Assembly (NCBI GenBank): GCA_016198185.1
Contig: JACQJD010000046.1
Location: 9,242 to 73,241, forward strand
Length of the DNA stretch: 64,000 bases
From: Deltaproteobacteria bacterium
Lineage (GTDB): Bacteria > Bdellovibrionota > JACOXK01 > 2-02-FULL-40-11
Reading direction: 5' to 3'
The notes below the pieces were generated by a model. The model did no database searches, had not been told where the DNA came from, and saw nothing but the letters and a program-made list of their open reading frames with translations. The position numbers and the translations under genes are program-made. The first letter of the stretch is position 1. The number at the start of each line of letters is the position of its first letter. This document shows, piece after piece, positions 9,801 to 63,100 of the stretch.

Positions 9801-9825
9801 CTATTTACAAAACGGGAAATAAAAA

Positions 9826-11674: not shown

Positions 11675-12157
11675 CTATTCTCCTCCTCCATATTTCACTG
11701 ATGACTCTTTTATAGGACTTATCTTTTTACCTAAAAAATCACAGATATAAGCTGTTACAATAAATTCTCCAAAGGTCGTACTTTCCAAAAAAACTGGAAC
11801 ATGCATATTTTGATTTTCTTCCAAGAAAGAAAATTTATGTTTTTTTTCATAAAGTATTTCAATTTTATCTTTTACTTTCTTTTGAATTTTAATAAAAACT
11901 GAATCTGCCTTTGTTGATGTATTCTTATTCGCCTCTATAACGAATAATGTGCGATTTGATGGATGCTTTAGGCTTCCCTCTCCAATCGATGAATTCCATA
12001 TATTGAAATCCGGATTAAAGATATTTTCAGACCATCCCCCAACACCATGGTAATACAAAAAACCTTTGACAGATAAAATTTCTGGAACTTTCTCTTGCGC
12101 AGCGAATAAAGGAAAGGAAAAGAGAAAGAAAGTTAGAACAAGAAAATATGTTTTCAT
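11675..12157 (-). CDS. Hypothetical small secreted protein
   Basis: Signal peptide MKTYFLVLTFFLFSFPLFAAQ (start taken at the internal Met of the 172-aa ORF). Flanked by inverted mini-palindrome arrays. Confidence 0.45.
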   Translation of the reverse strand: MKTYFLVLTFFLFSFPLFAAQEKVPEILSVKGFLYYHGVGGWSENIFNPDFNIWNSSIGEGSLKHPSNRTLFVIEANKNTSTKADSVFIKIQKKVKDKIEILYEKKHKFSFLEENQNMHVPVFLESTTFGEFIVTAYICDFLGKKISPIKESSVKYGGGE

Positions 12158-12219
12158 CAGCGATTTATAGCAAAGCATATCGATATAGATCAATAATTTT
12201 TGAAGACTTCCAATTCACA

Positions 12220-12401
12220 GAGATTCCTCACTTCGTTCGGAATGACAATATTACTCTGGTATACATCGATGAGACCCCTCACTTGCGTTCGGGGTGACGT
12301 GTCTAAGCTTATCCTGGCTTGCAGCCCAGTCTTTCCCTGGTGCGGGGAGATCCTCTCGGCTCTTCGAGCCTCGGGATGAATTAGCGCACATGCGCTAATT
12401 C
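12220..12401 (-). repeat. Mirror-image array of CCGAG..CGAGG mini-palindrome variants plus a perfect 24-bp palindrome
   Basis: agagattcctcacttcgttcggaatgac (reverse complement of the copy at 11601), gagacccctcacttgcgttcggggtgacg, ggagatcctctcggctcttcgagcctcgggatg, then gaattagcgcacatgcgctaattc. Confidence 0.6.
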
Positions 12402-12530
12402 AATCTAACTATCCTTCCCCTCCCCAAAAACCTCAAAAAAAGCCCCTGTTTCTACCAGCCAGACTGTGACAATTGGCCTCGTATTTAAGCCCTTGCTGTT
12501 GGCCCATGGAGACCGAATTTTTCGATAGTC
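12385..12530 (+). repeat. About 140 bp conserved 'P' element (copy 1), candidate small RNA or mobile module
   Basis: Near-identical to 33318..33462 (...ctaactatccttcccc...gcccctgtttctaccagccagact...ggcctcgtatttaagcccttgctgttggcccatggagaccgaatttttcgata). Both copies sit about 30 bp upstream of a hairpin element. Confidence 0.55.
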
Positions 12531-12557: not shown

Positions 12558-12645
12558 GGTGTTCGCGTAGCGCGCGGTGTGGCGGCCCAGGACGCGTGCT
12601 ACGCGAACACAACCAAGTCCTTAGAAATATTGACTTTTTCTTTTC
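12558..12645 (+). repeat. Hairpin element A (type-1 arm / core / type-1 arm / type-1 tail)
   Basis: ggtgttcgcgtagcgcgc - ggtgtggcggcccaggacgcg - tgctacgcgaacac, then the tail aaccaagtccttagaaatattgactttttcttttc. Confidence 0.7.
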
Positions 12646-12706: not shown

Positions 12707-13510
12707 GTGGCTGGAATAAAATTTCCAAAAATTAAACTACCGAAACTAAAGTGGCCGGAAAAACCACGTCAAAAAACATCGAAAAAGACATCGTCAAAAG
12801 AAAAGAAAGTACATCCTTGGAGACTCTGCCCACTGGGCCAACATTGGGTGCGAACTCATCCCATGCACGTGCCTCCAAGCAAGAAAAATCCTGCAGGCTC
12901 TGTTACCTCTCGTAAAGAACATTGCGCAAGAAATCCAACAGGTAAAGATCAACTCTATCCCGACGAAATTCTTGAAATGACAGATAGACATTTTTCTAAA
13001 GCCACAGAACTCCCCTGCCCTTTTAATTTAGGATTTTCAAAAGGGAATGATTATGACTTATTAATTGCGGGATGGACACAATACTGGAATGAGATTCTTA
13101 AGTCTGAGATTCCCCTGGGAAAAAATCTGGTTAAAGCTTTGATCGCAAGTGAATCTGGCTTTGATCCCAAAATTTTAGCAAATAAAAAAGATTCTAATAG
13201 TGCTCGCGGACTGATGTAAATCACCAATGCCACGCGAAAAATATTAGGGAATGAAAAGGGCGAACTTAAAGAACATTATATTACTGTCACTAAGGAAGAT
13301 CTCAATAATCCAAATATAAATATATGCACCGGCATACGTTGGCTCTTTCATAAACAAAAATTGGCTTCAGCGAGATTAAGGCGAAATGCCTCATGGGAAG
13401 AGACTATTTTTGAATACAAAGGTGGCAGAAGCACTTCTTCATCTCGGGCCAATAAGTTAATGGACAAGTTTCGAGAATGTCTCGTAAAGTTTGAGATGTG
13501 TGTAAAAAAA
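12707..13510 (+). pseudogene. SLT-domain lytic transglycosylase disrupted by one in-frame TAA
   Basis: 'ALIASESGFDPKILANKKDSNSARGLM*ITNAT...NPNINICTGIRWL' is an SLT signature (catalytic ES..., GLMQ). TAA at 13217-13219 occupies the Q (CAA) position of GLMQ. The frame continues to 13510. Confidence 0.65.
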
Positions 13511-14373
13511 TAAAAAAATATTTTTTATTCTTTGGTTTTATTTTAAGTATTTTGCTGACCAGCGATACGGCCAATCTATTCAAGGTTGTTTACAAAGGAG
13601 ATCCGTTGTGTCAGGAAAATACAATATTGATAGAACAAAAGCATGACCATGGTTATGACATCACCGTCTCAAGAGCCGAAGACTGGATATGTCAATCCAT
13701 CGATATCAAAAAAAATGGAAAATTACTTTTCCATAATGAAGAAATTGGCGGTTACTATTTCTTAAGTGATAACTTCGAAGAACATGGCAACCCATTCTTT
13801 TTTTTACCCGGTAATATCAATCCCCATTTTGTATTTTCCAAATGGACAGGGGGCGCCCATTGCTGCTATTCCCTTCATATTTTTTCATTGGGTCAAGATT
13901 TTCGAGAAGTAGCCGCAATTGAGGGTGGAAACTCCCAACCCATTCTTAAAGACCTCGATGGAGATCACATTCCAGAAATTGAAGTTTTAGATGATTTTTT
14001 AGCCTACCTTTTTTCAAGTTTTGCCACCTCAGCTTACGGGGCTGTCATACTGAAATATTCTAATGGAAAATATTATGTAGCAGCAGACATTATGAAAAAA
14101 CCGCGACCCCATTCCAATCTCTGGAAATCTAAAATTTATTCTTGGAAAAATGACTTACGTAAAAAAGGTCCAGAATGGCCTCCCCCGTCTCTCATCCAAA
14201 CCATGACAGATTTAATATTTACAGGAAATAAAAAAGTAGCTTTCGATCTTATTCATTCGATTTGGCCACCCGAGGTTTCTGGAAAAAATGACTTTCTATC
14301 TGAGTATGAAAAAGCATTAGCACAGTCCAATTTTTACCCAGAATTTGAAAAGAAACTTAAGCTGTTACAATAA
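13498..14373 (+). CDS. Hypothetical secreted protein ('gene A' family, the intact copy)
   Basis: 291 aa with GTG start and N-terminal hydrophobic signal. The C-terminal 45 aa recur as remnants at 9826 and 34667. Confidence 0.45.
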   Translation: MCKKIKKYFLFFGFILSILLTSDTANLFKVVYKGDPLCQENTILIEQKHDHGYDITVSRAEDWICQSIDIKKNGKLLFHNEEIGGYYFLSDNFEEHGNPFFFLPGNINPHFVFSKWTGGAHCCYSLHIFSLGQDFREVAAIEGGNSQPILKDLDGDHIPEIEVLDDFLAYLFSSFATSAYGAVILKYSNGKYYVAADIMKKPRPHSNLWKSKIYSWKNDLRKKGPEWPPPSLIQTMTDLIFTGNKKVAFDLIHSIWPPEVSGKNDFLSEYEKALAQSNFYPEFEKKLKLLQ

Positions 14374-14854: not shown

Positions 14855-14941
14855 CATTTCGACCAGCGCGCGGTGTGGCGGCCCAGGACGCGCGCTACGC
14901 GAACACCACCAGGTCCTTAGAAATATTGACTTTTTCTTATC
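14855..14941 (+). repeat. Hairpin element B (type-2 left arm / core / type-1 right arm)
   Basis: gcatttcgaccagcgcgc - ggtgtggcggcccaggacgcg - cgctacgcgaacacc - accaggtccttagaaatattgactttttcttatc. Confidence 0.7.
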
Positions 14942-16649: not shown

Positions 16650-16790
16650 TAACAGCAGCTTACCTTTATTTGAAAGTTAATAATTGATCGACCTCCATTA
16701 AACTCTCTTTAAGTCTTTTATAAGACGACGCAGAAAAAATAGCATGCCCTATTCTACCTCAATAATCGACAGCCTCAGGAATAGGTTGAT
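16650..16790 (-). pseudogene. 3' fragment of an ATP-grasp paralogue
   Basis: Shares the ...cctattct(a/g)cctc(a/g)ataatcgacagcctcaggaataggtt... segment with the 3' end of the 21174..22403 ATP-grasp gene. Confidence 0.4.
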
Positions 16791-16794
16791 GCGG

Positions 16795-16890
16795 GGCAGA
16801 CAGATCTGCTATGAATTATACCTTCAAGCTACTACAACACGTAAGGGCGGAAAATGGCGCCCTCAAATGATCAAAAGAATACTTGATCGA
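16795..16890 (+). pseudogene. Last about 30 codons of a serine-recombinase-like gene (copy 1 remnant)
   Basis: RQICYELYLQATTTRKGGKWRPQMIKRILDRP*, matching the C-terminus of the 35583..36023 ORF. Confidence 0.4.
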
Positions 16891-16935
16891 CCATGATCGA
16901 TCTGTTGATTTCAGCAAGAAAAACGCGATATTGTT

Positions 16936-17101
16936 TTATTGATGAAAACCAAAGAAGAAAAACGCCCCAAAGATATTGCGTATTTGGATACAAACGTTAT
17001 CAGTTTTTATTTTGACACAAGACCCGCGATTCAATTGATGCGCGATGCCACTCGTCAGTGGTGGGAAGAGAAAAGCAACGCTTATTATTTGTGTACTTCC
17101 T
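16936..17101 (+). pseudogene. PIN-domain gene with internal deletion (copy 1)
   Basis: MKTKEEKRPKDIAYLDTNVISFYFDTRPAIQLMRDATRQWWEEKSNAYY... aligns to the N-terminus of 36046..36576 but stops after about 55 codons. Confidence 0.5.
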
Positions 17102-17119
17102 ATGCTTAGGAGAATGCAC

Positions 17120-17384
17120 GATGAAGACAAAAATAAAACCAAAAAAATTGGTCATGGGAAGACATGAAAATCCAGTTGACTTCTTTAGACGTGTAAGAAT
17201 GGCCATTATGGAAGAGTTTGATAACGATATTTATAAATATGGCGCCTATTTAAGAGAAAGAGAAAAAGAGCACAAAGACCGGTTGGTGGATGTCGAAAAA
17301 CTACGAAAGCTTGGAATTATCTCAACTCAAATTTACACAATATATTTTACACCACCATCTTTTCAGCATACGTTTATTGTTTGA
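17120..17384 (+). CDS. Small conserved partner protein of the PIN module (copy 1)
   Basis: ...PVDFFRRVRMAIMEEFDNDIYKYGAYLREREKEHKDRLVDVEKLRKLGIIS is about 80% identical to 36573..36794. Confidence 0.5.
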
Positions 17385-21044: not shown

Positions 21045-21143
21045 GGCTTTGGTCAGGTGTTCGCGTAGCGCGCGGTGTGGCGGCCCAAGACGCGCGCTGG
21101 TCGAAATCTCTAAGGCCGTGTTAAATCTACGTTTTTTCTTCTC
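21045..21143 (+). repeat. Hairpin element C (type-1 left arm / core variant 'caaga' / type-2 right arm and tail)
   Basis: gctttggtcaggtgttcgcgtagcgcgc - ggtgtggcggcccaagacgcg - cgctggtcgaaatctctaaggccgtgttaaatctacgttttttcttctc. Confidence 0.7.
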
Positions 21144-21173: not shown

Positions 21174-22403
21174 TTATTTAAAAATTAAACAACGATCTGC
21201 TTGCATTAAATTATTTTTAAGTTTTTCATAGGATGATGCAGAAAAAATAGAATATCCTATTCTGCCTCGATAATCGACAGCCTCAGGAATAGGTTCATGG
21301 GGTGCAATATCGAGATGATATTCTTCGAGCCCTTCTAGTTTTTTTAAAGCATCTATCCCATGAACTGAGTTATAAGATCGAAGGCCGTCCCTGATAAAAT
21401 AAATAATACCCGCTGTTTTTTTAATTTTTGGCGGAGAATACTGCAAAACTGAGATTGGCATATTCAAATAATTCTGAATCATGATTTTTCTTAAATCTAT
21501 CTTTTTTGAGATATGAATAAGATCTATGATGTGATCACCCGCAAGACGCGCAGCAATTTCAATCAGAATAGGCTCTTCTTGATCGAGACGTATTTCCATG
21601 TGAAATGGCCCCAGATTTATCTTCATAACAGTTATAATTTTTTTAACATATTGAAAAATTTTATCTCGAACACGCTGATTGAGATGAGCCTCAACGATAT
21701 GCCCTCTTTCAACGAAATAGGGATGGGGCCCTAAAATTTTCTCCGTAACACTCACAATTTGTGCTTCACCATTCTCAACAAAGCCTTCAATGCTAAATTC
21801 CGGCCCTTCTATATATTGTTCAATAATAGCTGCCCTTTTCAGAGAATACCCACAAAGATAATCTTCCAATGAAAGCGCTGTTTTAAGCGATTTTGCTAAC
21901 TCCTTGGGATTGCTCGCAAGAGACACAGCAACGCTCCCGGCATAATTTACAGGCTTTATCACGCAAGGAAATCCTACTTTTTCAATAATAGCAGGTATTT
22001 CTGTGAAATGCTGTGCCACAAAGTAGCATATATTTTTTAAACCCGCTTCATCGAGTACCTTTCTCATTTCATTTTTAAGTTTTACAGTGGGCCAACAGTT
22101 TTGATGAAGTCCTGGTAAACCCAAATCTCTGTTGGCTTGATTCGCCAATAGAACAGACAATTCACCTCCAGGAAGAATGGTCTGCATTTTTAATTTCTTT
22201 TGGTATTTTTGTACCTGATCTAAAAAAATATTTTCTTGATTCGTTGGAAGGTCGATGACTTCACATTTTTCTTTTATACTTTCTGGTAATGGAAGATGAT
22301 TAGAAAGATTCTTCAGAATAACCACTTTATAACCCAGCTCAATAGCAGCAGTAACCAATCCCAGCCCTGACGAATAAGGCTCTATAATACCGATCGTTTT
22401 CAT
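21174..22403 (-). CDS. ATP-grasp domain ligase (locus 1)
   Basis: 409 aa with an ATP-grasp fold layout ('CVIKPVNYAGSVAVSLASN', 'EQYIEGPEFSIEGFV', 'MEIRLDQEEPILIEIAARLAGD'). Paralogue of 25510..26730. Confidence 0.65.
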   Translation of the reverse strand: MKTIGIIEPYSSGLGLVTAAIELGYKVVILKNLSNHLPLPESIKEKCEVIDLPTNQENIFLDQVQKYQKKLKMQTILPGGELSVLLANQANRDLGLPGLHQNCWPTVKLKNEMRKVLDEAGLKNICYFVAQHFTEIPAIIEKVGFPCVIKPVNYAGSVAVSLASNPKELAKSLKTALSLEDYLCGYSLKRAAIIEQYIEGPEFSIEGFVENGEAQIVSVTEKILGPHPYFVERGHIVEAHLNQRVRDKIFQYVKKIITVMKINLGPFHMEIRLDQEEPILIEIAARLAGDHIIDLIHISKKIDLRKIMIQNYLNMPISVLQYSPPKIKKTAGIIYFIRDGLRSYNSVHGIDALKKLEGLEEYHLDIAPHEPIPEAVDYRGRIGYSIFSASSYEKLKNNLMQADRCLIFK

Positions 22404-22981
22404 ACTTGAACCCCAGACTTCTTTCTAAAGTATTTGACCTCTCCAAAAATCGTCGCTGAGATTAAGAGCAAGCCTGATAAGATACAGACACTTCTCGGCT
22501 CTGGGTAAAGTCCCATTCCTTCCCCAACGGCACCCGTGGCCCAAAAAACACCTGAATGACGCGCCCGCTGCGTTGAATCTTTTAAAAAATCAGCTGCAAA
22601 ATAATAATAAGAAGGACCCGAAATAAATTCACCCAAACTCAATAAAATAACAGCAATAATGACTATCCGATAATCTGTCGCAAACCCGACTAAGAACATG
22701 CTGATCACAAATAAACTCATGCCAATTTTAATTTTAAGCCAGTGAGAACTTATTTTTTTGATCCGACCATTCAACAGAAGAAAACCCAATACAATTGTTC
22801 CAGCATTGAGAGCAACCCAGATATTACCTTCTGACTCAAATCTCAACTGACTGGAAATGGAGGGAATGCTTGAAAAAATCATCGTATAACAAGCCCAAAA
22901 TCCAGAGATAATTAAAAGATAAACAAGATCTGGATGAAGATGAAGGTTGAGAGTCGATAAGTGTACCACGTTGCTCCTCAC
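22400..22981 (-). pseudogene. MFS transporter C-terminal half (truncated paralogue of 26727..27863)
   Basis: 193 aa that align only with residues about 215-404 of the MFS protein at locus 2 (LSLGEFISGPS.. versus LSLGELILSPT..). No N-terminal half lies upstream. Confidence 0.5.
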
Positions 22982-23164
22982 ATTGAAGCAAAAAGAAACA
23001 AAGAACGATAATAAAATAATTCTTAAAATGAAAATTCATATAAACAACTCATTTTCAAGGGATATGAGCAATTATACCCTAAGCACAAAGAAAAAGAAAA
23101 GTTTTTTGTTTGTGTTTTTAATAATTTTTTAATCCATTTTTAATTTTCCTATTTAAAAAAATTC

Positions 23165-23215
23165 TGAAAAATTCTGGGGGGAAATTCTGGGGACACGATA
23201 CTTAATTCATCTTTG
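23165..23215 (-). repeat. Inverted copy of the 'gataagtattgtgtcccc(a/c)gaattt' repeat
   Basis: The reverse complement reads gatgaattaagtatcgtgtccccagaatttccccccagaattttt. Confidence 0.45.
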
Positions 23216-23372: not shown

Positions 23373-24164
23373 TTATTCCAATCTGGAAATGAGCTGATCT
23401 TTAACGACTTGCACAGCCATTTTTGGATCATACTTGACAGAGGGTAAAATAAGGCCATCGATATCTTTTAGAAAATCTAAAGAATTCATTTTCTTGTCTA
23501 AGTTTTCGATAAAATCTTTTTGTGAAATCTTTACTTTTTGAAAATTTAAATATTTTTGAAATGCTAAATTAATTTTATCTGGCATTGCCTTTCCCATGGT
23601 TAATCCTGCCCATAAATCAAAAAGATCTCGCCCTTTTCTTCGTTGATAAAGCGCGCGTAATTTCGTTCCCAAAAGCTCCTCCAGTGAATAAGTCAAAACA
23701 TCAACCTTTCCTTGATACCAACGTGACTGAACACTCAAAGGATATTTCATAAATCCAAAAACCGAAAAATGTTCACGGCAATTCATTTCAATTTTAAGCC
23801 TCAGAGGCACAATTGGAGGTCCTTCTGAGTTAAAGCGATAAATCAAATTTACTGTTCCTTTTTTGTGATTTCTTTGAGGGGTTCCCAGCCATGGATCCAA
23901 TACCGCCCTTAAAGCAGTAAGCGGGAGACCAATGGGTTCTGATTTTATTTGAACAAGATCAATATCCTCGGAATAGCGTGCACTCTTTTTTAAATATAGC
24001 TTGGAAAGAGCAGTCCCTCCCCTAAAAGCAAATGTTTTTGAAAGTTCGGGATGTTTATAAATTTCAATTAAAGCTCGAGAAACAATTAAATCCTGTTCAA
24101 CCTGTGCATCGGATACCCAAGGTGTAAATTTTCGCCACTCTGTAATGAAATCTTTAGGAATCAT
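23373..24164 (-). CDS. AbiEii-like nucleotidyltransferase toxin (DUF1814)
   Basis: 'FAFRGGTALSKLYL...RYSEDIDLV' is a DUF1814 nucleotidyltransferase signature. Overlaps the upstream AbiEi gene by 4 bp. Confidence 0.75.
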   Translation of the reverse strand: MIPKDFITEWRKFTPWVSDAQVEQDLIVSRALIEIYKHPELSKTFAFRGGTALSKLYLKKSARYSEDIDLVQIKSEPIGLPLTALRAVLDPWLGTPQRNHKKGTVNLIYRFNSEGPPIVPLRLKIEMNCREHFSVFGFMKYPLSVQSRWYQGKVDVLTYSLEELLGTKLRALYQRRKGRDLFDLWAGLTMGKAMPDKINLAFQKYLNFQKVKISQKDFIENLDKKMNSLDFLKDIDGLILPSVKYDPKMAVQVVKDQLISRLE

Positions 24165-24967
24165 AGATCAGCCTCTATTTTCATATTTATCAGTATTTTC
24201 CATTTATCATTAGGCTTGGCCCCTTTTTTAGAAGCTGAAGGGACCAAGGGAACAAATGCTTTTACTCTCTTTTTTATGACATTAAAAAGGGGCAAGGCAA
24301 ACTTTTTTTTCTTTAAAATGGAATCGAATAAAAATCCCAGCCTTTGAAGAGAAGATAATTCTGACACAAACTGGGTGGCTAAAATCATTTTTTGTGCGTC
24401 CATTTTTTCTAGTAATTCATAAAGAATCGTTACAACATTATTGAGCCCCCCTACATATTGAGGATATGAGACAAGATCCAATGCGGTTGCCTCAGGAGAG
24501 GAAATCGCCACAAATCCACGAGGCGTTTTAATATCAAGTTTTGGAATATCTTTAACAAATTGTCTTGCAATGAAATGTATTAGAACTGATCCACATTTTA
24601 TTTTTTTTCTGTTTTTTGGAACAACTACTTGAAATTCTTGTGGCTTTTGATGACTCGCCCCATGAAACTGGGCCGCCGTTAATAATCCCACATAGTATGG
24701 CTGTTTGAGAAAATTCATTAAATCTGGAATGAATTGTTCTGGCGGGAGACACCCCAGGCTTTGATACTCCGGAGGTATAATGATATGAAATCCACGAACT
24801 GGAGAGACAATAAATCCTTTGGATTTGAAGCGACGAACAGATGCTCGAACGGCTACAGTACTCTTTTTTAAGGCTAAAACAGCATCTTTTGTCGTAAAAA
24901 AATACCTTCCCTCCGCCTGAAGTTTCCGAATCCATAAATCAAGGTTCTTTTTTAGCTTGGCAGTCAC
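24161..24967 (-). CDS. AbiEi-like antitoxin / transcriptional regulator
   Basis: The N-terminal part ('YFFTTKDAVLAL...') resembles the AbiEi winged-helix family. 268 aa; operonic with AbiEii. Confidence 0.7.
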   Translation of the reverse strand: MTAKLKKNLDLWIRKLQAEGRYFFTTKDAVLALKKSTVAVRASVRRFKSKGFIVSPVRGFHIIIPPEYQSLGCLPPEQFIPDLMNFLKQPYYVGLLTAAQFHGASHQKPQEFQVVVPKNRKKIKCGSVLIHFIARQFVKDIPKLDIKTPRGFVAISSPEATALDLVSYPQYVGGLNNVVTILYELLEKMDAQKMILATQFVSELSSLQRLGFLFDSILKKKKFALPLFNVIKKRVKAFVPLVPSASKKGAKPNDKWKILINMKIEADL

Positions 24968-25261: not shown

Positions 25262-25335
25262 GTTAGAGATAAGTATTGTGTCCCCCGAATTTCCCCCCCG
25301 AATTTTCCCGAATTTTCATCCCCCGAATTTCTTCA
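25262..25335 (+). repeat. Direct copy of the 'gagataagtattgtgtccc' repeat with a tandem (c)ccgaattt expansion
   Basis: gagataagtattgtgtcccccgaatttcccccccgaattttcccgaattttcatcccccgaattt. Confidence 0.5.
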
Positions 25336-25509: not shown

Positions 25510-26730
25510 GTGTTACTGGAACCCGGCTTTGGTGGCTTAGGGTACATCGAAGCTGTCAAAAAAAGAGGGCATGAACTTCTCGTATTGACACAACGAGAAG
25601 AAAATCCACAAGAACGAGGATATGCCCATCTTTTGACAGATAAAATCGTTGTAGACTTTGAAGATTTCAAAACCCTTGTCAACACACTCAAAGCTAATCA
25701 ACATTTTTCAAAAATTAAGGCCATTCTGCCAGCTATGGATGAAAATACGCACACCGCATCTCGCCTAGCGGGCTCTCTAGGTTTTCGTGCTGCTCCCTAT
25801 GAAGCAATTATGGCGGGGAGATACAAAGACATAGGCCGAAAAGTTTGCAAAGAAAAAAACATTCAAACACCTCAATCCATTAAAGTACGCACAGAAAAAG
25901 AAGCCCGTGCAGCAGCCCATGCGCTTGGCTATCCGGTTATTCTTAAACCTGCCGATGGCGCAGGAAGCGCACATGTGACATTGCATAACACTGAAACATC
26001 ATTGCTAGAAGAAGTTAACCTGCTTTCAACGGTGAAGACAAATTATGGGTATCCGGTGAATGGAGAATTTTTGATTGAGGAGTTTATAGACGGTCAGGAA
26101 TTTAGCGTGGAGATTTTTATGTGGGATTCACAGGTCAAATTTGCAAGCGTGACAGAAAAACACACCACACCGCCTCCGTGTTTTGTAGAGACGCTCCATG
26201 TTGTTCCAACGGCCCTTTTTAAAGAAGAGATTCCTGAAATCATTCATTTTGCTGTTTCCGCACTCACAGCTATTGGTTATTCGGATGGGCCTGCGCATGT
26301 TGAATTAAAATTGTCAACTTCCGGACACTATTTTCTCATTGAAATAAATCCGCGCATTGGGGGTGACATGATCTCTACTGATTTACTTCGAATTTCTTTT
26401 GGGATGAATATGCATGACGCCCATATCTGTTGGGCTCTGGAAGAGCCCTATCCATTTCCCTCTTCACAAGCACTCTGCGCAACGGCCATTTCTTTCTTAT
26501 TGGCACCCACAAAGGGGCGATTGCTAAAAGTAGCGGGATGGGAAAATCTCTCTCAACAGGCAGGCATGGTCAAACATGCTCTCTTTCATAAAATAGGTGA
26601 ATGCGTTTTTCCACCAACTGAAAATGCTGAACGATTAGGATACCTTATTTGCAAAGGGGACACACCTCACATTGCGAAAGAACATGTAAAGAGTGCACTC
26701 GAGAGCTTAAGCATAGAAATTTCTTCATGA
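25510..26730 (+). CDS. ATP-grasp domain ligase (locus 2)
   Basis: 'VILKPADGAGSAHVTL', 'EEFIDGQEFSVEIF' and 'HVELKLSTSGHYFLIEINPRIGGD' give the ATP-grasp (carboxylate-amine ligase-like) topology. Confidence 0.65.
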   Translation: MLLEPGFGGLGYIEAVKKRGHELLVLTQREENPQERGYAHLLTDKIVVDFEDFKTLVNTLKANQHFSKIKAILPAMDENTHTASRLAGSLGFRAAPYEAIMAGRYKDIGRKVCKEKNIQTPQSIKVRTEKEARAAAHALGYPVILKPADGAGSAHVTLHNTETSLLEEVNLLSTVKTNYGYPVNGEFLIEEFIDGQEFSVEIFMWDSQVKFASVTEKHTTPPPCFVETLHVVPTALFKEEIPEIIHFAVSALTAIGYSDGPAHVELKLSTSGHYFLIEINPRIGGDMISTDLLRISFGMNMHDAHICWALEEPYPFPSSQALCATAISFLLAPTKGRLLKVAGWENLSQQAGMVKHALFHKIGECVFPPTENAERLGYLICKGDTPHIAKEHVKSALESLSIEISS

Positions 26731-27863
26731 GAAAACCATCGCAATTAGCATTGATACTGCAATTTCTAGATAAACTTCTTTATTTTGCCATTGTTCCCAA
26801 CATTATCCTGCTCGTGCATCGTGCGGAGATGCTCAGCCTTTCAGATTTAGCCTTTTTCTTTGCCATTCATATTATTCCCTTAAGAGGCCTACCTGTCATC
26901 ATTGGATATTATGTAGATCGAGCCCATTTAAAACAGGCACTTTTGGGTGGATTTATATTACAAGCTTTCTTTATAATCTCGCTGTGTTTTGTATCACATC
27001 GTTGGTTATTTTTACTGTGCGGATTGGGCGCAGGGATGGGCGGTGGTATATTAGCGCCTGTTTTTAATAAAATTCTTGCAGATGGGCAACAACACCATGA
27101 AGAAAAACAAAATTTTCTATATCAATTTTTAGGAATTAATATTGCAGCTGCGGTGGCATCGCTTTTAGCATGGCCTTATCTTTCGCTGTATACACTTCTT
27201 TTTTTTATCCCCGCATGTGTCAGCCTGATCTTAATGGTAAAAAACTTAGATCCCATTACAAGAATGGCAGCTGATGAAGTTCATCCAAATTTTTTTAGAT
27301 CTTTAACTCACATTTTAAAACATGCCCCTGCGCTTAAAATATTAATTTTACTCTCATGCGAATGGGCCATGTATACAATGCTCATGAGTGGCATTCCTGC
27401 AATTGCGGTATCCATTAATGAAAAAATCAATGGCAATCTGTGGATAGGACTCAATGCCGTTACATGCATCCTGGGTTATTTTATTTTCATTCAAAAATTA
27501 AAAGACATGTCCAGAGATCACGTACGCTTGCAACAGGGAATGGTTCTATCCTCCATTGGCATGGTAATTATTGCCTGTGCACCTTCTTTGTTTTTTATTT
27601 TTTTGGCAGTGGTTGTATTTAGCTTAGGAGAATTGATTCTTTCCCCGACGGGAGCTCGCTCTTTAGCCAAGCTTGCTCATCCCAGTATGCGAGGTCAATA
27701 TGTCTCTTCGCTGCTGCTTGCGGGAAGTCTTGGAGAAGGTGGCGGTCAACTTTTTTTAAGCCTCTATCCTCACCCTAGAATGGTTTGCTTTATCGTAGGC
27801 ATCGTAAGTTTATTTTTCACCTGGTATTTGATGCACGCTACGCGAACACCACCAAATCCTTAG
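26727..27863 (+). CDS. MFS-type transporter
   Basis: Multiple TM helices; the start ATG overlaps the ATP-grasp stop (ATGA). The C-terminal codons are supplied by the right half of hairpin element F. Confidence 0.6.
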   Translation: MRKPSQLALILQFLDKLLYFAIVPNIILLVHRAEMLSLSDLAFFFAIHIIPLRGLPVIIGYYVDRAHLKQALLGGFILQAFFIISLCFVSHRWLFLLCGLGAGMGGGILAPVFNKILADGQQHHEEKQNFLYQFLGINIAAAVASLLAWPYLSLYTLLFFIPACVSLILMVKNLDPITRMAADEVHPNFFRSLTHILKHAPALKILILLSCEWAMYTMLMSGIPAIAVSINEKINGNLWIGLNAVTCILGYFIFIQKLKDMSRDHVRLQQGMVLSSIGMVIIACAPSLFFIFLAVVVFSLGELILSPTGARSLAKLAHPSMRGQYVSSLLLAGSLGEGGGQLFLSLYPHPRMVCFIVGIVSLFFTWYLMHATRTPPNP

Positions 27864-33317: not shown

Positions 33318-33462
33318 AGTTCAATCTAACTATCCTTCCCCCCTCCCAAAAAATCTCAAAAAAGCCCCTGTTTCTACCAGCCAGACTATGGCAATCGGCC
33401 TCGTATTTAAGCCCTTGCTGTTGGCCCATGGAGACCGAATTTTTCGATATGTACCTATGAGG
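33318..33462 (+). repeat. About 140 bp 'P' element (copy 2)
   Basis: About 90% identical to 12385..12530, again followed by a hairpin element. Confidence 0.55.
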
Positions 33463-33473: not shown

Positions 33474-33572
33474 CTTTGGTCAGGTGTTCGCGTAGCGCGC
33501 GGTGTGGCGGCCCAGGACGCGCGCTGGTCGAAATCTCTAAGGCCGCGTTAAATCTACGTTTTTTCTTCTCAA
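33474..33572 (+). repeat. Hairpin element D (type-1 left arm / core / type-2 right arm and tail)
   Basis: Near-identical to element C (...gctttggtcaggtgttcgcgtagcgcgcggtgtggcggcccaggacgcgcgctggtcgaaatctctaaggccgcgttaaatctacg...). Confidence 0.7.
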
Positions 33573-34671: not shown

Positions 34672-34745
34672 GACGCGCTATGAAGTATTAAACAATCGAA
34701 TTTTTATCCAGAGCTTGAAAAACAACTTAGGCTGTCACAATAACA
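34667..34745 (+). pseudogene. Third remnant of the 'gene A' C-terminus
   Basis: ...aaacaatcgaatttttatccagagcttgaaaaacaacttaggctgtcacaataa matches the end of 13498..14373 but is frame-disrupted. Confidence 0.45.
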
Positions 34746-35545
34746 TCGTAGGCTTTGGAATGTTGTTCAATGCGATAGGCTTGTTTACCAAAAAATTCCA
34801 TCAATGTGCATTCGGTATTGTTTTTGAAATATTCGAGATTTTCTGTCTTTAAGACCACTGCCAAAAAAGGAGACTCTTTTTTGTAAGAAACATCTCCCAA
34901 TGTTGCACGCGCTGTATCAGTGATCCAGATTTTACTTTGATCATGAAGCGTTATCTCGCCATGATGATTTTTACGCTCAAGAAGCTCTTCTAAAATAGGA
35001 CCCAATTTTTGTGACCGATCCCATAAAACAATACCTAAAACATGGGTGCACTCATTGTCATGTTTTAAGCTTAAACGACTTTTTCGCTCTCCCAAAACGG
35101 GGTCCGTTTCATACTCTGTAAACCAAATTTCAATCCCAGGATACAAAGGTTTCCTAAAAAAAATAAAATTCCAACCCGGGAGAGATGCCGTCGAATTATT
35201 TTTCCAATCATAGTTTTTATGTACGTATTGAATATCGTATTTCTTAAAAGAGGCTTCTTTTTTAGTGAAGAAATTCTTTAGATTTTTGTTCACTCGAAAA
35301 GACACGCCTGTCGGATATGGCTGTTGGCCAATTTCTTTTTGCGTTTTCAAAAAAACGTCATCATTTTTAATTTCCACAAATTCAAGATATTTCTTATCCC
35401 CGATGGCTAAAAATCGACACAGTTGCCCACCTTCGTGTTCAACGACATGTTCAGACTGAGTAGAAAATCCTAATTTTTTAAAACGCTCATACTGTTCACA
35501 TGATATCCATCGTGAAAATGCATGGTCATATCCAAATTCAAACAT
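34727..35545 (-). CDS. Hypothetical protein ('gene B' family, the intact copy)
   Basis: 272 aa. The C-terminus ...RIEQHSKAYDVIVTA recurs at 9948..10025. Convergent 3' overlap with 'gene A' remnants. Confidence 0.45.
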   Translation of the reverse strand: MFEFGYDHAFSRWISCEQYERFKKLGFSTQSEHVVEHEGGQLCRFLAIGDKKYLEFVEIKNDDVFLKTQKEIGQQPYPTGVSFRVNKNLKNFFTKKEASFKKYDIQYVHKNYDWKNNSTASLPGWNFIFFRKPLYPGIEIWFTEYETDPVLGERKSRLSLKHDNECTHVLGIVLWDRSQKLGPILEELLERKNHHGEITLHDQSKIWITDTARATLGDVSYKKESPFLAVVLKTENLEYFKNNTECTLMEFFGKQAYRIEQHSKAYDVIVTA

Positions 35546-35559
35546 AAAGTCAGTTTCTC

Positions 35560-35676
35560 CAGGTGTTCGCGTAGCGCGCGGTGTGGCGGCCCAGGACGCG
35601 CGCTACGCGAACACCACCAGGTTCTTAGAAACATTGACTTTTTCTTTTCCACCCCTCTCGATGATCCAGCTCTTTT
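35560..35676 (+). repeat. Hairpin element E (type-1 / core / type-1, long tail)
   Basis: aggtgttcgcgtagcgcgc - ggtgtggcggcccaggacgcg - cgctacgcgaacacc - accaggttcttagaaacattgactttttcttttccacccctctcgatgatccagctcttttgg. Confidence 0.7.
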
Positions 35677-35699
35677 GGGTTTTTTATACAACAATCAAG

Positions 35700-36023
35700 G
35701 ATTATCTGCATCTCGTCGCCCATAGTTTCAACCATTCAAAATCATTCGTGCTGGGCCTGCTCAAGCAATATAAAATTTCCCTAAGACCAAAACATGATAA
35801 CGTTGGCAAGAACCCCAATCAGCCTTTCGGCTATCAGATTTACCACGGAAAAAGATGCAAAGATAAAAATAAACAAAAAACCATAGATCTAATCCGAAAT
35901 CTTCACACAGCAGGACAATCCTTCAGACAGATCTGCTATGAATTATACCTCCAAGATATTACAAGGCGTAAGGGTGGAAAATGGCACCCTCAAATGATCA
36001 AAAGAATACTTAATCAAGCATGA
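35700..36023 (+). pseudogene. Truncated large-serine-recombinase-like gene (C-terminal 'recombinase' segment only)
   Basis: '...LIRNLHTAGQSFRQICYELYLQDITRRKGGKWHPQMIKRIL' matches the '...G.S.R.IA..LN..GIPTPRGGKW..STV.RIL' segment that follows the catalytic domain of serine recombinases. The catalytic N-terminus is absent, and the ORF N-terminus is made of hairpin-element sequence. Confidence 0.5.
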
Positions 36024-36045
36024 TCGATCTGTTGATTTCGGCAAG

Positions 36046-36576
36046 ATGAATGCGATATTGTTTTATTTGATGAAAGCTAAAGAAGAAAAACGTCCCAAAG
36101 ATATTGCATATTTGGATACCAACGTTATCAGTTTTTATTTTGACACAAGACCTGAAATTCAATGGATGCGTAACGCTACCCGTCAATGGTGGGAAAAAAG
36201 AAAACAGGATTTTTACGTATGCACATCGGAGGCTGTTGTCGGCGAACTGGAAGATGGAGGTTATTTGCATCAGCCAGAAGCCGTTAAGCTCGTAAAATCC
36301 ATTGCAGTTTTGCCAGGAAACGACTCAGTAGACAACATTGCCCAATATTATATTGAGCACTATTTAGCGCCGAAGGAAAATATCCAACGTTTTCGTGGAG
36401 ATGCAATTCATCTGGCAATTTGCGCTTTCTATCATGTCGATTATTTGCTAACATGGAATTTGAAACATTTGGCGAATGTAAATAAATTCAGACAACTTAA
36501 AATTATGAATGCTCGCATGGATTTATCAACGCCAATTATTACAACACCAGCACAACTTTTAGAGGAAACTATATGA
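36046..36576 (+). CDS. PIN-domain (VapC-like) protein
   Basis: 'IAYLDTNVIS', 'CTSEAVVGELE', 'GDAIHLAICAF' and 'LLTWNLKHL' give the conserved acidic quartet layout of PIN nucleases. Confidence 0.6.
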   Translation: MNAILFYLMKAKEEKRPKDIAYLDTNVISFYFDTRPEIQWMRNATRQWWEKRKQDFYVCTSEAVVGELEDGGYLHQPEAVKLVKSIAVLPGNDSVDNIAQYYIEHYLAPKENIQRFRGDAIHLAICAFYHVDYLLTWNLKHLANVNKFRQLKIMNARMDLSTPIITTPAQLLEETI

Positions 36577-36794
36577 AAGCAAAAAAACAAAAATCTCAAC
36601 TAGCAATACGTCAAGGAGAAGACCCCATTGAACATCTGAGACGCGTTAGAGCGGCCATTCTTGAACGATTTGATAATGATGTCTACAAATATGGCGCCTA
36701 TTTAAGAGAGAAAGAAAAAGAACACCAGGATCGGTTGGTGGATGTCGAGAAACTTAGAAAGTTGGGAATTATATCAACCAAGAAAATACCATAA
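36573..36794 (+). CDS. Small conserved partner protein of the PIN module (copy 2)
   Basis: 73 aa; ATGA overlap with the PIN gene; conserved in copy 1. Confidence 0.5.
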   Translation: MKAKKQKSQLAIRQGEDPIEHLRRVRAAILERFDNDVYKYGAYLREKEKEHQDRLVDVEKLRKLGIISTKKIP

Positions 36795-36859: not shown

Positions 36860-37813
36860 TTAATTACCCGACAGCAATTTACCAAAACGACGCCAACGTA
36901 TACCGGTTTCAGAAGATCTGGAAAACCAAATTTGTTTCGCCTTGGCAGTTACATCTCTCAAAGGAACCGTCCCGAAATGCCTTGAATCATGCGCATCATT
37001 CCGATTGTCACCCAAAACGAAAACCTGTCCATCAGGAACAACAACAGAAAAACTTTCTTGTTTCATGTCCTTCTTCCAGAGAACCACATAGCTGGCACTG
37101 TTGCCTCGCTCAAGATAGGCAATGTAATCTTCAAGTAACTTATTCATATCGGGAGCATCTAAAGAGGTCACCTTTTCTCCTCGAATCGATTTTCCATTTA
37201 CAAAGATTTCATCTCTCCTCCCCTCTATCGTATCACCTGGAAGGCCAATGATGCGTTTGATATAGACACTGTTTCGATTGTTTGGATAGACAAAGATCGC
37301 CAGATCTCCTCGCTGAACTTTGTATTTACACCCTGGACAGTTAATACGTTTATCAACAAAAAAATGGTCCCCAGGTAACAGAGCTGGAATCATGCTCTTG
37401 GTCGGAACTTTATACGCCTCTAATAACTGATCCTTACAGTATGAGGTAAACGCACTCAAAACAAAGAAGTACCCAAAGAAAAACAAGGCAACATATACAT
37501 AAGCTTTATTATAGGATTGTACGGCATAGGTATAAGAAAGCATGCGCGCTGATTTAAAAGCATCAACGATTGAAAAAATATAGACTGCAAGGGCCATCAG
37601 AACGCCTAGGAACACGATGGCGGATAAGGCAGAATCTGGCGCATAAAGTCCCAGAAGTATTGACGCAGGAATAAGAAAAGAAAACATGAGAAAAAATGGC
37701 ACTCCTTTCATAAGCTGTCCAGTATAGACATGCCCTAATCCAGGCATGATCATGCCTAATACCAATGCTAGCCATGGCTTCCTCGGTTTGTTTTGTTTTA
37801 TTGATTGATTCAT
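36860..37813 (-). CDS. lepB: Signal peptidase I with an N-terminal multi-TM extension
   Basis: S26 motifs 'RGDLAIFVYP', 'IKRIIGLPGDTI' and 'VFVLGDNRNDAHDSRHFG'. Start taken at MNQSIK, which has a perfect aaggag RBS. Confidence 0.75.
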   Translation of the reverse strand: MNQSIKQNKPRKPWLALVLGMIMPGLGHVYTGQLMKGVPFFLMFSFLIPASILLGLYAPDSALSAIVFLGVLMALAVYIFSIVDAFKSARMLSYTYAVQSYNKAYVYVALFFFGYFFVLSAFTSYCKDQLLEAYKVPTKSMIPALLPGDHFFVDKRINCPGCKYKVQRGDLAIFVYPNNRNSVYIKRIIGLPGDTIEGRRDEIFVNGKSIRGEKVTSLDAPDMNKLLEDYIAYLERGNSASYVVLWKKDMKQESFSVVVPDGQVFVLGDNRNDAHDSRHFGTVPLRDVTAKAKQIWFSRSSETGIRWRRFGKLLSGN

Positions 37814-37883
37814 TTTAAGTCTCCTTTCAAGAGTTTGTTGTTCATATAGAAATACAACTCGGGAGAGCAATAGGTTCCCACAC

Positions 37884-38264
37884 TTATGCAATCGATGGGA
37901 TCACTATAGACAAGACAAACCGATACACGTTTCCAAGCGCAAACATAAGACTTGCAGTTACAAACCCGACTTGCATAGCAGGCACCTGAAATAGCTTAGT
38001 GAATATGGTCTGAATTCCTATGAACCTACTTTTTTCATGTAATTCATTCGGATCGTTGATTTTATGCATGATTCGATCCACAAAATTACTCGGAACTTTC
38101 TGATCCAAGCTTTCTAATAACGAATTCAGTTCAGAAAATTCGGAGGCAATGGCATTACAAGACTGACATGAAAGAATATGCAATTGATGAGCCCTACTCA
38201 GTTTTTTATTCCATGCAATCTCTTCCTGTACCAAATTACAATCGAATAATAAATTTTCTTTCAT
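37884..38264 (-). CDS. Zinc-finger anti-sigma factor (ZAS-like) with a C-terminal TM segment
   Basis: 'HQLHILSCQSC' H-x3-C-x2-C motif; a 4-bp overlap with lepB downstream and with the sigma gene upstream. Confidence 0.55.
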   Translation of the reverse strand: MKENLLFDCNLVQEEIAWNKKLSRAHQLHILSCQSCNAIASEFSELNSLLESLDQKVPSNFVDRIMHKINDPNELHEKSRFIGIQTIFTKLFQVPAMQVGFVTASLMFALGNVYRFVLSIVIPSIA

Positions 38265-50194: not shown

Positions 50195-50282
50195 TTATGG
50201 CTTTAGTAACGCAACAGGAAATTGTAAGCAAGAATATTTTAATTGAAACAAATCTTATCTTTTCATTTTAGAAATCTTTTCC

Positions 50283-50372
50283 CCTTATCCTAAAGATCTT
50301 CTCTCCAGGGAGTTGGAACGAGGAGTCTATATTTCCAACTCCCTGGAGAGAAGATCTTTAGGATAAGGGGAC
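50283..50372. repeat. Perfect 38-bp inverted repeat in a divergent promoter region
   Basis: ccccttatcctaaagatcttctctccagggagttggaa ... ttccaactccctggagagaagatctttaggataagggg, with a 14-nt loop. Confidence 0.6.
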
Positions 50373-60113: not shown

Positions 60114-63100
60114 ATGAACGACCGCCTCGCTAAACGTTTGTTTTATTGGGTGCCAAAAATTGTCACTCAGGTTATCGGTTTGAGTCTCCTGCCAATAGCT
60201 CTGGGGCTCGAACTTCAATGCCGCCTCAGAGCTATTGGCAGGGGACTCACGTTGCTTCCCTTTGACCTTGCTACAGTTTGTATCTTAGGGATGACTGCTG
60301 TATCCGCTTTTGCAGAGCCTCTCGTGTGCTCCGTAGAAAATCGCTATTCGCCAATGAGCTTCCAAGAGTTTGTTCTGCAAGGAACGCCTTCATTTCCGCT
60401 CTTTTCCAATCAAGAGCTCAAAGAATATTATTCACCTCAAGAGCTCTCTGACTTTGAAAAGGTCCTTTCAGCCGTTTATCTTTTTCCACAAGATTTAGAT
60501 ATTGATCATCTTTTTTTAGAAAATTTAGCGGTAGAAGATATTTCTTCTTTGGCCCAAGAATTTTTTGACGCGGAAGGTCTTTCTTCAGCGAAAGAATCAA
60601 GTGAATTTAAAGAAGCCCTTTTGGGATGGCAAGCATTTGGCGTTGATCCCATTCTACTCATCAATACCTGGCAGGTTACAAAACTAGAACTCGCAGATGC
60701 TGAATTTATTTCTTGGCTTCATGAAACAGATTCTTTTTCGGATGAAGATTTAAAAGCTTCGCCTTCTACACTTTCCAAAGAACGAAAATATCATTTGATT
60801 AAAGAATATAAAATTGAACCTTTGATTTTAGAAATTCTTACCCAACGAATGATTTTAGCCATGATGGCAGTCTGGCAAGAAGAAGGGAAAGTGGATTTAA
60901 CCGAGTCTAATCTTTTGCATGAAAAATTACTTTCTTATCAAAAAATGCAACCTCCACTGGTTGACTTAGAAGATGTCCAAAAACAAAAAGAAAAGATTTT
61001 AAAGGAAGTAAAAGCCCAAAAGAAAGCGCTTTTAGCTTTCATCCCAAAAATGGAAGAAAATGCTTTGGTAGAATTCTTTAAAAGTTTCCCACGAATGATG
61101 GAACGAGCGCTTAATCTCTCCCTTGCCAATATTGCTTACTGGGATGGAAAGCTCTGGGGAGCGGCTTTTGGCAAGAACTGGGATTGGTCAGATGTAGGCG
61201 CAGATATTATTAATTTTAACAGAGAGATGATGAATAATTATGGAGGTGGTTCTTATTTGGGAAGCGATTTAGAATTTGCAAACGTAGCACGAGAAAAGAA
61301 ATTCTTTGGATTGAATCTAGAAAAAACATTTGGGCAAGAGGTTGAGAAATTCTATGCAGAGCATGTCAATTTGGAACTTGCCGCAGAATCTTTTAATGTT
61401 TTTGAACCTGTCGGAAGAGCTTTGGCCCCCATAGCCCAACCTATCCTCAATTATCTTTATGAAAAGAAAAAAGATTATGACCTTTGGGTCACTGGTTTAA
61501 CAGAAAAACAATATGAACGGGCTCTTCAAGAAGATAGGTACTTGCAACTGGGACAATTGGGATTGGATGCAGCCCTTACTTCGCTTGAGCTACTTGCCTT
61601 TCGAGGAACGAGAATTTCTTCCCAAAGACTGGCCAGACTCTCAAAACTAAAGAGAGCCACCCCTTCTAGAATACGATTTGTAAAAAGACAAAGGACGTGG
61701 AGGGCATTTCAACCGCTCATCGTTGCAGGAGTTTTGGGAGGGGCTTCGTCGCTGGGGGCAGAACTCTATCAAGTCGGAGAAAACAAGAAATCATTTAGTT
61801 TCTTTAGACTGCTGCATCAAACAAATCTTTCAACAGAAGGCAGTCTTATATTTATGAAGATGACCCAAGCCCTCAGTAATCTTGTAGCAAGACAAGGGGG
61901 ATTTACACCGAAAGCTGTAGAACACGCCAAAGTACTTTCAAAGAGTCTCGATTTCACAGAAGGTTCACTCGATATTCCAGGAACGATTGCGATGATAAAG
62001 AAAGCCCGAAGTAATCTGGGACTGCTTGGAAGCTCACTTATTTTGGGAGCCAATATTTTTGATACGACAGATGTTTCGGTGTCTGGGGTGCTTCATTCTT
62101 TGAAAGCCCTGATACCAGGCAAATCAAAAGCTATTCCGAGTGAACACGTCATTCCGAATGAACTTGTCATTCCGAGCGAACACGTCATTCCGAATGAACA
62201 CGTCATTCCGAGCGAAGCGAGGAATCCCATCGATTCAGCTGATTACAACGCCACCCTTGCAAAAGCCCGTCTTGTCTTGGGACAAGACATCCCAGATCGG
62301 CTTGCAGAGCTCATTTACGCCTCCCACCGCGTTGGGTACGCAGAACCAGGAAAAGATGGATCTCCTGCGTGCATCGGAAATTACACCGATCTTCAACTCA
62401 TTGAAAAAACAAAAATCCTCACCCTCGCCGTGGAAGAAGGCTGGATCACCTACCCACAACTTAAAAAACTCATCCAAGAAGGAGTGGTGGGATCTCAAAT
62501 TGCTCCCATCATCCGACCTGGCGAAATGCGAATTCCACCCGAAATCAAAAAGGCTATTGAAGAAGGAGAAGGCAAGCGCGATTTCATAGCCTACGTGACC
62601 CAAATCTGGGGAAAAAAGTTTAAAGCGGCTGTCACCGCCAAAGCACTTTCTGATGCGCATCAAATTCTAAACACCTACGAAACCATGGTAAAAGAGCCTG
62701 CGATCCTCAAAGACAAAAAAGCAGAAGCTGCGCTCATTGAAAAAGTTGTAGCCTTGGGAAAACGACGAGCACCTATTTTAGATCAGACCTTCGTTCCTCA
62801 AATCGAAAGATTATATCGAGAATCTTCTATCGACGACCGATTCCAACCCCACCATCAATGGCGAATGATTGACCTCTTACGACAAATGGACACTGCCGAA
62901 GCCGCGACATCACTCGTCACCCTGCTTTCAGAAGAAAGAGATGACGACATGGTCCAACCTTTCAAACGTGGCCTGCTTCGAATGAAATCCGCCAAAGCTG
63001 TGATTCAAACCAAAGCTGTAACATCTTCGGCGTCACAACCTGTCAAAGACTTAGCGGAATTGTACCGAAAGGCCGAAGAAAGTCCGTCTGGTCTCCTCAC

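Follow-up and report, generated by a model that had tools for sequence, protein, structure and literature searches.

Relation to described toxin–antitoxin systems

PIN-domain (VapC) proteins are the most abundant toxins of toxin–antitoxin systems, and in the textbook VapBC operon the antitoxin gene comes first and encodes a DNA-binding VapB. The stretch analysed here (the window; 64,000 nucleotides (nt) of contig JACQJD010000046.1, positions 9,242 to 73,241 of the forward strand) comes from a groundwater metagenome-assembled genome labelled 'Deltaproteobacteria bacterium' (HY390), and in it a gene for a VapC-like PIN protein is directly followed by a gene for a protein of 73 amino acids (aa), here called the partner; NCBI enters both as hypothetical proteins (HY390_03755 and HY390_03760). 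Judged from sequence comparison, the pair is probably a type II toxin–antitoxin module of reverse order, with the toxin gene in front and the gene for an antitoxin of a new family behind it. It resembles VapBC in the PIN fold with conserved acidic residues, the small overlapping partner gene, the patchy spread over multiple phyla and the position in a toxin–antitoxin island, yet differs in that the toxin comes first with the partner downstream and in that Pfam PF01850 is weakly matched. The partner also differs from VapB, as it carries no AbrB, ribbon–helix–helix (RHH), Phd or helix–turn–helix (HTH) domain and has no sequence or structural similarity to it.

Toxin-first operons are themselves established, BrnTA being one. 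The same reverse order is found in the type II systems higBA, hicAB, mqsRA and rnlAB (PMC4803016). All five share with the present pair a toxin gene that precedes the antitoxin gene in one operon, but their toxins have RelE-like, HicA, MqsR, RnlA and BrnT folds instead of a PIN fold, and their antitoxins, which have HTH or RHH DNA-binding domains, frequently exceed the toxin in size, whereas the partner has a helical-hairpin core of ~45 residues.

Small non-classical antitoxins of PIN toxins have also been described. In the NetFlax survey, PIN/VapC-like toxins were neutralised by small proteins without a known domain, namely PIN_D128 by SpnP1 and SpnP2 and PIN_D59 by SpnP3 (Ernits et al. 2023, PMC10440598); SpnP2 and SpnP3 differ from the partner in carrying DUF2080 and DUF2680, neither of which the partner matches. 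The same survey lists an unvalidated pair 'M90:D59' from the planctomycete Alienimonas californiensis (PMC10440598), whose sequences include WP_145357150.1 and which, compared by description only, is likewise toxin-first and comes from a phylum in which the present family is frequent, while its D153:D128 row (Aliifodinibius halophilus) is antitoxin-first (PMC10440598). In Synechocystis 6803, slr1383/ssr2317 and sll1543/ssl2999 are predicted toxin–antitoxin pairs of a PIN protein and a 'hypothetical' protein (Kopfmann et al. 2016, PMC4963859); again by description only, these predicted pairs share with ours a PIN gene followed by a small hypothetical gene, in a phylum holding the present family.

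An intact PIN gene and its overlapping partner

Only the PIN–partner bicistron (36070..36794) forms the functional unit, and it comprises two genes:

36070..36576, + strand, PIN-domain (VapC-like) nuclease gene, putative toxin, 168 aa (176 aa in the mechanical open reading frame (ORF) from 36046)
36573..36794, + strand, partner gene, putative antitoxin of a new family, overlapping the PIN stop codon by ATGA, with GAGGA 7 nt upstream

A preliminary description of the window had proposed a four-part module (hairpin element, recombinase remnant, PIN gene and small partner gene) present in two copies, among which the present one (copy 2) was taken to be intact. Both ORFs (36046..36576 and 36573..36794) are indeed present and overlap by ATGA. 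The true PIN start is most likely the ATG at 36070, because the NCBI gene model and all homologs begin there and the ATG at 36046 is not kept in copy 1.

An AlphaFold2 (AF2) model of the PIN protein (predicted local distance difference test (pLDDT) score 88.5; predicted template-modelling (TM) score (pTM) 0.83) was compared with the PDB by Foldseek. The top 24 matches are all VapC or archaeal PIN proteins at a probability of 1.0, with TM-scores on the target from 0.5 to 0.73, and the best are VapC toxins of Shigella, M. tuberculosis, H. influenzae, Caulobacter and Rickettsia. The model thus predicts a PIN fold, that is, a three-layer alpha/beta/alpha arrangement with a parallel sheet. These matches came from fold comparison alone, a profile of the PIN family having found nothing significant among PDB sequences. 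Among 25 relatives PF01850 was matched in 13 at E<0.01 (best 4.9e-6), and an NCBIfam scan of 25 sequences of the family gave one weak match.

The active site of PIN nucleases classically holds four conserved acidic residues. In an alignment of 25 sequences (176-aa numbering), E67, D119, D132, W137 and H141 are invariant, N138 is nearly so and position 24 is D or E; D24, E67 and D119 correspond to D16, E59 and D111 of the 168-aa protein. Of the catalytic acidic residues, on whose presence the preliminary description had made its reading depend, the core is kept at D/E24, E67 and D119.

The conserved core of the partner spans ~45 residues (D-x2-I-x2-IR-x2-R-x2-IS-x-E-x2-HD-x2-K-x4-Y-x3-Q), with R23, R26 and D36 nearly invariant. 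Its AF2 model (pLDDT 83.6) is a helical hairpin formed by helices 18-31 and 37-50, and the segment FDNDVYKYGAYLREKEKEH, which had been singled out beforehand as conserved, is the loop plus second helix of this core. No match was found in Pfam, NCBIfam, PADLOC, PHROGs or PDB sequences. The number of homologs recovered depended on search depth: a single-sequence word index, which under-represents the family, returned 3 proteins, a profile 85, and an exhaustive profile search 4306 representatives of 50%-identity clusters at E<=1e-3. The profile search suggested in the preliminary description thus places the 73-aa protein in a family conserved far beyond the two copies in the window. Since the partner is widely conserved and the core acidic residues of the PIN protein are kept, the earlier wording 'novel antitoxin or accessory factor' stays the best reading.

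The partner domain also occurs as two to four tandem copies per protein or fused behind DUF4926 (P0115, P0116, P0118, P0048 and P0152), and some partner genes stand behind small genes of the DUF4160/DUF2442 or DUF5678-like kind in place of a PIN gene (L097, L121 and L181). The tandem copies, fusions and other neighbours hint that the domain is modular.

Distribution and linkage of the pair

Homologs of the PIN protein range from 28 to 72% identity. A motif scan for it over one genome per species confirmed at least 589 relatives in Planctomycetota, Verrucomicrobiota, Cyanobacteria, Acidobacteria, Gamma- and Deltaproteobacteria and other phyla. A set of 80 of these loci was then classified with hidden Markov models (HMMs), and 76 had room downstream of the PIN gene. 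At 67 of the 76, an intact PIN gene is directly followed by a partner homolog, most commonly at a spacing of -4 nt (the ATGA overlap), and an HMM built from close relatives of the window's partner alone recognises 64 of the downstream ORFs. Five loci combine an incomplete PIN gene with an intact partner, among which L012, L035, L056 and L068 are truly disrupted and L032 is merely cut by the contig end. The remaining four (L015, L050, L082 and L075) have an intact PIN gene without a detected partner; L075 carries two PIN copies, the first with a partner and the second with its downstream side unchecked. Apart from that second PIN gene, no intact PIN gene with room downstream lacks a small gene behind it.

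At L015 (2314-2526), L050 (584-799) and L082 (3468-3641) the small gene is about as long as the partner gene but belongs to another family (SEILxEKxxVQ...), and it too overlaps the PIN stop codon. These ORFs may encode an alternative or a very divergent partner.

The identities of PIN proteins and partners co-vary over the 67 pairs (r = 0.73), a value reached in none of 2000 Mantel permutations. The linkage was also seen from the partner side: a back-translated HDPxKLVxYY motif retrieved 120 metagenome loci, 117 of them partner-positive and 104 with room upstream, and the PIN family lies upstream of the partner at 88 of the 104.

Upstream of the PIN gene, no gene is conserved in the 59-67 loci examined, and an upstream antitoxin with an N-terminal DNA-binding domain, as in VapBC, is absent from them. 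The preliminary remark that a PIN-first order is atypical for VapBC is borne out by this and by the downstream position of the partner at the 67 loci. The two adjacent, co-oriented small genes thus stay paired across distant taxa in unrelated neighbourhoods, as is general for type II systems. The pair is found on plasmids too, in Thiodictyon syntrophicum and Kovacikia minuta, and RefSeq names the Thiodictyon PIN protein a 'type II toxin-antitoxin system VapC family toxin'; no relatives of the PIN family were found in IMG/VR viral contigs.

Loss of the PIN gene and survival of the partner in copy 1

Copy 1 is colinear with copy 2 in three nucleotide blocks. Its features are as follows:

16797-16940 = 35924-36067, block 1, 90% identity
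16934-17106 = 36062-36234, block 2, 80% identity
17166-17326 = 36618-36778, block 3, 78% identity
16666..16797, - strand, ATP-grasp 3' fragment abutting copy 1, last 44 codons (tblastn, 70% identity to residues 367-410 of the 21174..22403 product)
16765..16896, + strand, tail of the recombinase fragment (tblastn, 67% identity, remnant residues 101-145; PF07508 E = 0.0013)
16942..17109, + strand, PIN stub, N-terminal 55 aa (78% aa identity to PIN residues 1-55), with TAG at 17107-17109 on the deletion junction
17121..17384, + strand, intact partner paralog of 87 aa with its own GGAG Shine-Dalgarno sequence (67% aa identity to copy 2)

Copy 1 had been described as keeping the partner, lacking most of the PIN gene and of the recombinase fragment and being abutted by an ATP-grasp fragment. 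The blocks, a gap of ~325 nt in the PIN gene (~36235-36560 of copy 2) and the 44-aa ATP-grasp end agree with this on every point. The recombinase-tail match extends at the protein level back to 16765, and the homology of the partners stops at 17326, beyond which the C-terminal tail of copy 1 is replaced. The putative toxin gene of copy 1 is inactivated. No third copy was found in the window by tblastn and HMM scans. Loci L002-L004, identical sequences from three other sequencing runs, and P0003 represent the same locus as copy 1 and hence are not independent evidence.

Divergence between the copies was estimated by the Nei-Gojobori method (dS, synonymous divergence; ω, ratio of non-synonymous to synonymous divergence):

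Partner: dS 1.2, ω 0.11
Retained PIN N-terminus: dS 0.97, ω 0.14
Recombinase tail: dS 0.17, ω 0.57 (only 32 codons)

A recent duplication is ruled out by the dS of ~1.0-1.2 in the genes, and the two copies are old, diverged paralogs. The partner evolves as a protein, given an ω of 0.11 at dS 1.2. Because ω is low for both the partner and the retained PIN part, both genes were under purifying selection and functional through most of the time since divergence, which makes the PIN deletion in copy 1 a comparatively late event. A broken PIN gene beside an intact partner is found in five independent cases, that is, in copy 1 and at L012, L035, L056 and L068.

Toxin-first module or two-subunit enzyme

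The strongest indirect argument is this asymmetry of decay: the antitoxin reading is favoured because the PIN gene breaks while the partner stays, and because intact PIN genes, leaving aside the second one in L075, keep a small gene behind them. Under it, the first gene would encode a VapC-like PIN endoribonuclease with a metal-binding acidic core of D24, E67 and D119, and the second gene would be translationally coupled to it through the ATGA overlap. The helical-hairpin partner would bind the PIN protein and block it directly. In FitAB and VapBC complexes, antitoxin arginines enter the acidic pocket of the toxin; by analogy, the conserved arginines of the partner may reach into the acidic active site. 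What the sequences show is a conserved and linked gene pair, a PIN fold, purifying selection on either gene and decay that is asymmetric; we infer the toxicity of the PIN protein, its neutralisation by the partner and this mode of binding. The pair would be inherited and mobile as a self-contained unit, here residing in a toxin–antitoxin and defence island, with copy 1 (16942..17384) as an old paralog whose toxin was deleted and whose antitoxin survived, and with the upstream hairpin and integrase fragment as probable debris of other events in the island.

Several observations weigh against this reading. The window PIN protein matches PF01850 at E = 0.005 and 17.9 bits, under the gathering cut-off of 23.6, and the usual fourth acidic position is apparently taken by N138/H141, as judged by position against VapC motifs, although D132 nearby is invariant. 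Comparison of the partner model with PDB folds found no structural relative and no DNA-binding fold, and lacking a DNA-binding domain, the partner leaves the autoregulation typical of type II systems unexplained. The linkage and co-variation of the two genes are equally expected of any obligate two-subunit enzyme. At 16 of the 104 partner loci (~15%) no gene of this PIN family lies upstream, the partner being an orphan or standing behind other small gene pairs, for example DUF4160/DUF2442. Finally, at L001 (1985-2209; Logan SRR29093009) a 74%-identical partner directly follows AbiEi-AbiEii with an ATGA overlap and no PIN gene; the partner is therefore not strictly PIN-specific, and this case would represent either an orphan antitoxin left by precise loss of the PIN gene or an exchange of partners.

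Part of this evidence is what would be expected if the partner were an accessory subunit or regulator of the PIN RNase (a specificity, activating or transcription factor) and the pair a two-subunit enzyme, which we consider unlikely. Such a role would suit the absence of a known antitoxin or DNA-binding fold, the tandem arrays and DUF4926 fusions, the orphan partner genes and those in other contexts, and co-variation of a kind found in any stable complex. A partner serving the PIN protein alone should, however, decay with it, yet it is intact and under purifying selection where the PIN gene is broken; and the patchy distribution over phyla, the unrelated neighbourhoods and the toxin–antitoxin island in this genome are typical of selfish modules.

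Beyond the toxin–antitoxin module itself, there is about an even chance that the 73-aa protein belongs to a very large unannotated antitoxin superfamily (at least 4300 clusters at 50% identity) of PIN inhibitors that consist of a bare helical hairpin, have no DNA-binding domain and are encoded toxin-first. Such a superfamily may be modular or promiscuous, as the arrays of two to four domains, the DUF4926 fusions and the sites behind AbiEii or DUF4160/DUF2442 pairs would indicate. If so, it would define a distinct 'VapC-first' type II class common in Planctomycetota, Verrucomicrobiota, Cyanobacteria and Acidobacteria.

In phyla that have seen little experimental work, thousands of PIN genes carry a downstream helical-hairpin partner. 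As no curated library names this partner, annotation pipelines leave it 'hypothetical' and treat the PIN proteins as orphan toxins. With the family defined, many 'orphan VapC' annotations would become complete, structural work would gain a minimal PIN inhibitor of ~45 residues, and the question would arise of how an operon is regulated when its antitoxin does not bind DNA. The advance is incremental and not conceptual, reverse order and non-classical small PIN antitoxins having already been documented for other families.

The upstream hairpin, recombinase remnant and conserved block

Three features precede the PIN gene of copy 2:

35552..35685, + strand, copy of a GC-rich palindromic repeat of type A-A' (stem 35562-35615) with conserved right flank
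35817..36023, + strand, large serine recombinase (integrase) fragment, pseudogene remnant (PF07508 E = 7e-6, positions 2-51/102)
35924..36069, + strand, conserved block upstream of the PIN gene (dS 0.17 here vs ~1 in the genes)

The hairpin (35562-35615) has a perfect 19-bp stem, a folding energy of -33 kcal/mol and a z-score of -9, and its core GCGCGCGGTGTGGCGGCCCAGGACGCGCGC occurs five times in the window against none expected by chance. The copies, all inside the island, are:

12558-12610, 14856-14907, 21056-21107, 33483-33534 and 35562-35615, + strand, full hairpins
27830-27860, + strand, half hairpin

The inner stem and an asymmetric loop are constant, while the outer arms are of two types, combined in the five full copies as A-A', B-A', A-B', A-B' and A-A'. 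Where the inner stem begins at its base, A-type copies have the motif GTAG...CTAC. A right flank of ~40 nt is conserved in two subtypes. Just upstream of two hairpin copies lies a block of 111 nt (12417-12527 and 33339-33449; 91% identical), so the repeat unit is perhaps ~230 nt in some copies.

An Rfam scan by E-value of 12000-37500 gave no match, hence the hairpin is not a known RNA, and its core has no match in JGI metagenomes, IMG/VR or PLSDB. It is an independent lineage-specific repeat outside the PIN–partner module, possibly a REP-like element or a recombination site. Repetitive extragenic palindromic (REP) elements are short GC-rich palindromes that contain GTAG/CTAC, are scattered between genes in many copies throughout the genome and are associated with a cognate RAYT. 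The hairpin is like REP elements and their BIME composites in being a repeated, intergenic, GC-rich near-perfect palindrome with GTAG...CTAC in the A-type copies and in having sub-types with chimeric arms, but unlike them its copies (counted in the window alone) share one orientation, are confined to the island at 12.5-35.6 kb and have 40-110 nt of conserved flank.

An integron attC site was considered and rejected. attC sites are imperfect palindromes with RYYYAAC ... GTTRRRY core sites and extrahelical bases, and bound single-ORF cassettes near intI. The arms of the hairpin (5' GTTCGCG ... CGCGAAC 3') are of the opposite sense and the A-A' stem pairs perfectly over 19 bp; moreover, 2-6.7 kb with several genes on both strands separate the copies, unlike single-ORF cassettes, no search for intI having been made.

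The recombinase remnant comprises ~66 residues that are internal to the protein (positions 243-309 of 651 in the phrog_95 integrase, E = 2e-9; PF07508 as above), and not the C-terminus for which it had been taken. It resembles large serine recombinases at the start of the 'Recombinase' domain (PF07508, PHROG 95) but has neither the resolvase catalytic domain nor the zinc-ribbon or coiled-coil C-terminal part. Where its catalytic domain would be expected, the sequence is taken up by the hairpin and a convergent ORF.

That hairpin, recombinase, PIN gene and partner are the remains of one integrative element, with the hairpin as attachment or recombination site, an integrase and a stabilising cargo, is a doubtful proposition. 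The two arm types and their hybrids (A-A', B-A' and A-B') are what site-specific recombination would yield, the right flank of the hairpin runs into the ORF of the recombinase remnant and recurs at 27830, and the junction of recombinase tail and PIN gene is common to both copies. Yet the recombinase piece is internal and has lost both its catalytic and its C-terminal part, the five other hairpin places have no recombinase or PIN gene alongside, and the hairpin lies outside the duplicated unit and has no match in the other collections searched. Neither hairpin nor recombinase fragment occurs at any of ~200 related PIN–partner loci. Of the four-part duplicated module first proposed, recombinase tail, PIN gene and partner are thus colinear in both copies, while the hairpin falls outside and repeats elsewhere alone; with no recombinase fragment at the related loci and no conserved upstream gene, hairpin and recombinase are no longer counted as module parts, and the suggested recombinase-PIN-partner synteny is not found. 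The island of this genome may have originated on an integrative element, but such an origin does not characterise the module.

The recombinase tail and the rest of the block upstream of the PIN gene are 90% identical in nucleotides between the copies, above the coding regions, and near-neutral as protein. Going by only 32 codons, the block (35924..36069) may either have been homogenised later or be constrained as DNA. The operon's promoter and 5' region may lie in this block; a scan for promoter consensus called none within it, promoter and terminator scans having performed at chance level. That the real antitoxin is an undetected element (a small RNA, a very short upstream ORF or an antisense transcript), with the 73-aa protein as a third component, would suit the high identity of this 146-nt block and the missing DNA-binding domain of the partner, but is very improbable, as no upstream ORF of at least 25 aa is conserved beyond close relatives in 59 loci, no Rfam family matches in the region and the block upstream of the window PIN gene is not conserved at related loci.

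The surrounding island

The pair forms the right edge of a variable island of ~24 kb, from ~12.4 to 36.8 kb of the window, which domain scans of the window ORFs found to be dense in toxin–antitoxin and defence genes. Its boundary and content include:

36860..37891, - strand, lepB, right boundary of the island
in the island, two AbiEi/AbiEii pairs
in the island, an MNT-like nucleotidyltransferase
in the island, a BrnA/CopG-like gene
in the island, a split AAA_14/DUF4143 ATPase
in the island, two pairs of ATP-grasp and major facilitator superfamily (MFS) genes

One AbiEi/AbiEii pair (~23373-24967) is bracketed by inverted repeats of 47 nt (23158-23204 and 25270-25316; 89% complementary, with GGGGG-AAATTC motifs) and is placed between the two ATP-grasp + MFS pairs, which are inverted to each other (21174-22981, - strand; 25510-27863, + strand) and are distant paralogs with 28-34% aa identity. 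The AbiE pair with its repeats looks like the insertion of a small mobile cassette.

Beside a DEAD-box helicase gene, two convergent gene-end fragments (9797-9964, + strand; 9948-10031, - strand) are homologous to the C-termini of the ORFs at 13498-14373 and 34727-35545, with 71% aa identity each, and have the appearance of debris that marks the island's left margin.

Other repeats were noted along the window. At 62133-62222 the 18-nt sequence ATTCCGAGTGAACACGTC is repeated in tandem about five times, and the related sequence GTCATTCCGAACGAAGTGAGGAATC forms a 41-nt inverted pair (11589-11629 and 12219-12259) around the ORF at 11675-12193. Nested inverted repeats (a 49-nt and a 25-nt pair) occupy 4866-5166, and a perfect 39-nt inverted repeat pair with a 14-nt loop is present at 50280-50371. 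Similar inverted pairs of 27-32 nt, both containing TTGGCAG, are located at 830-908 and 60181-60249.

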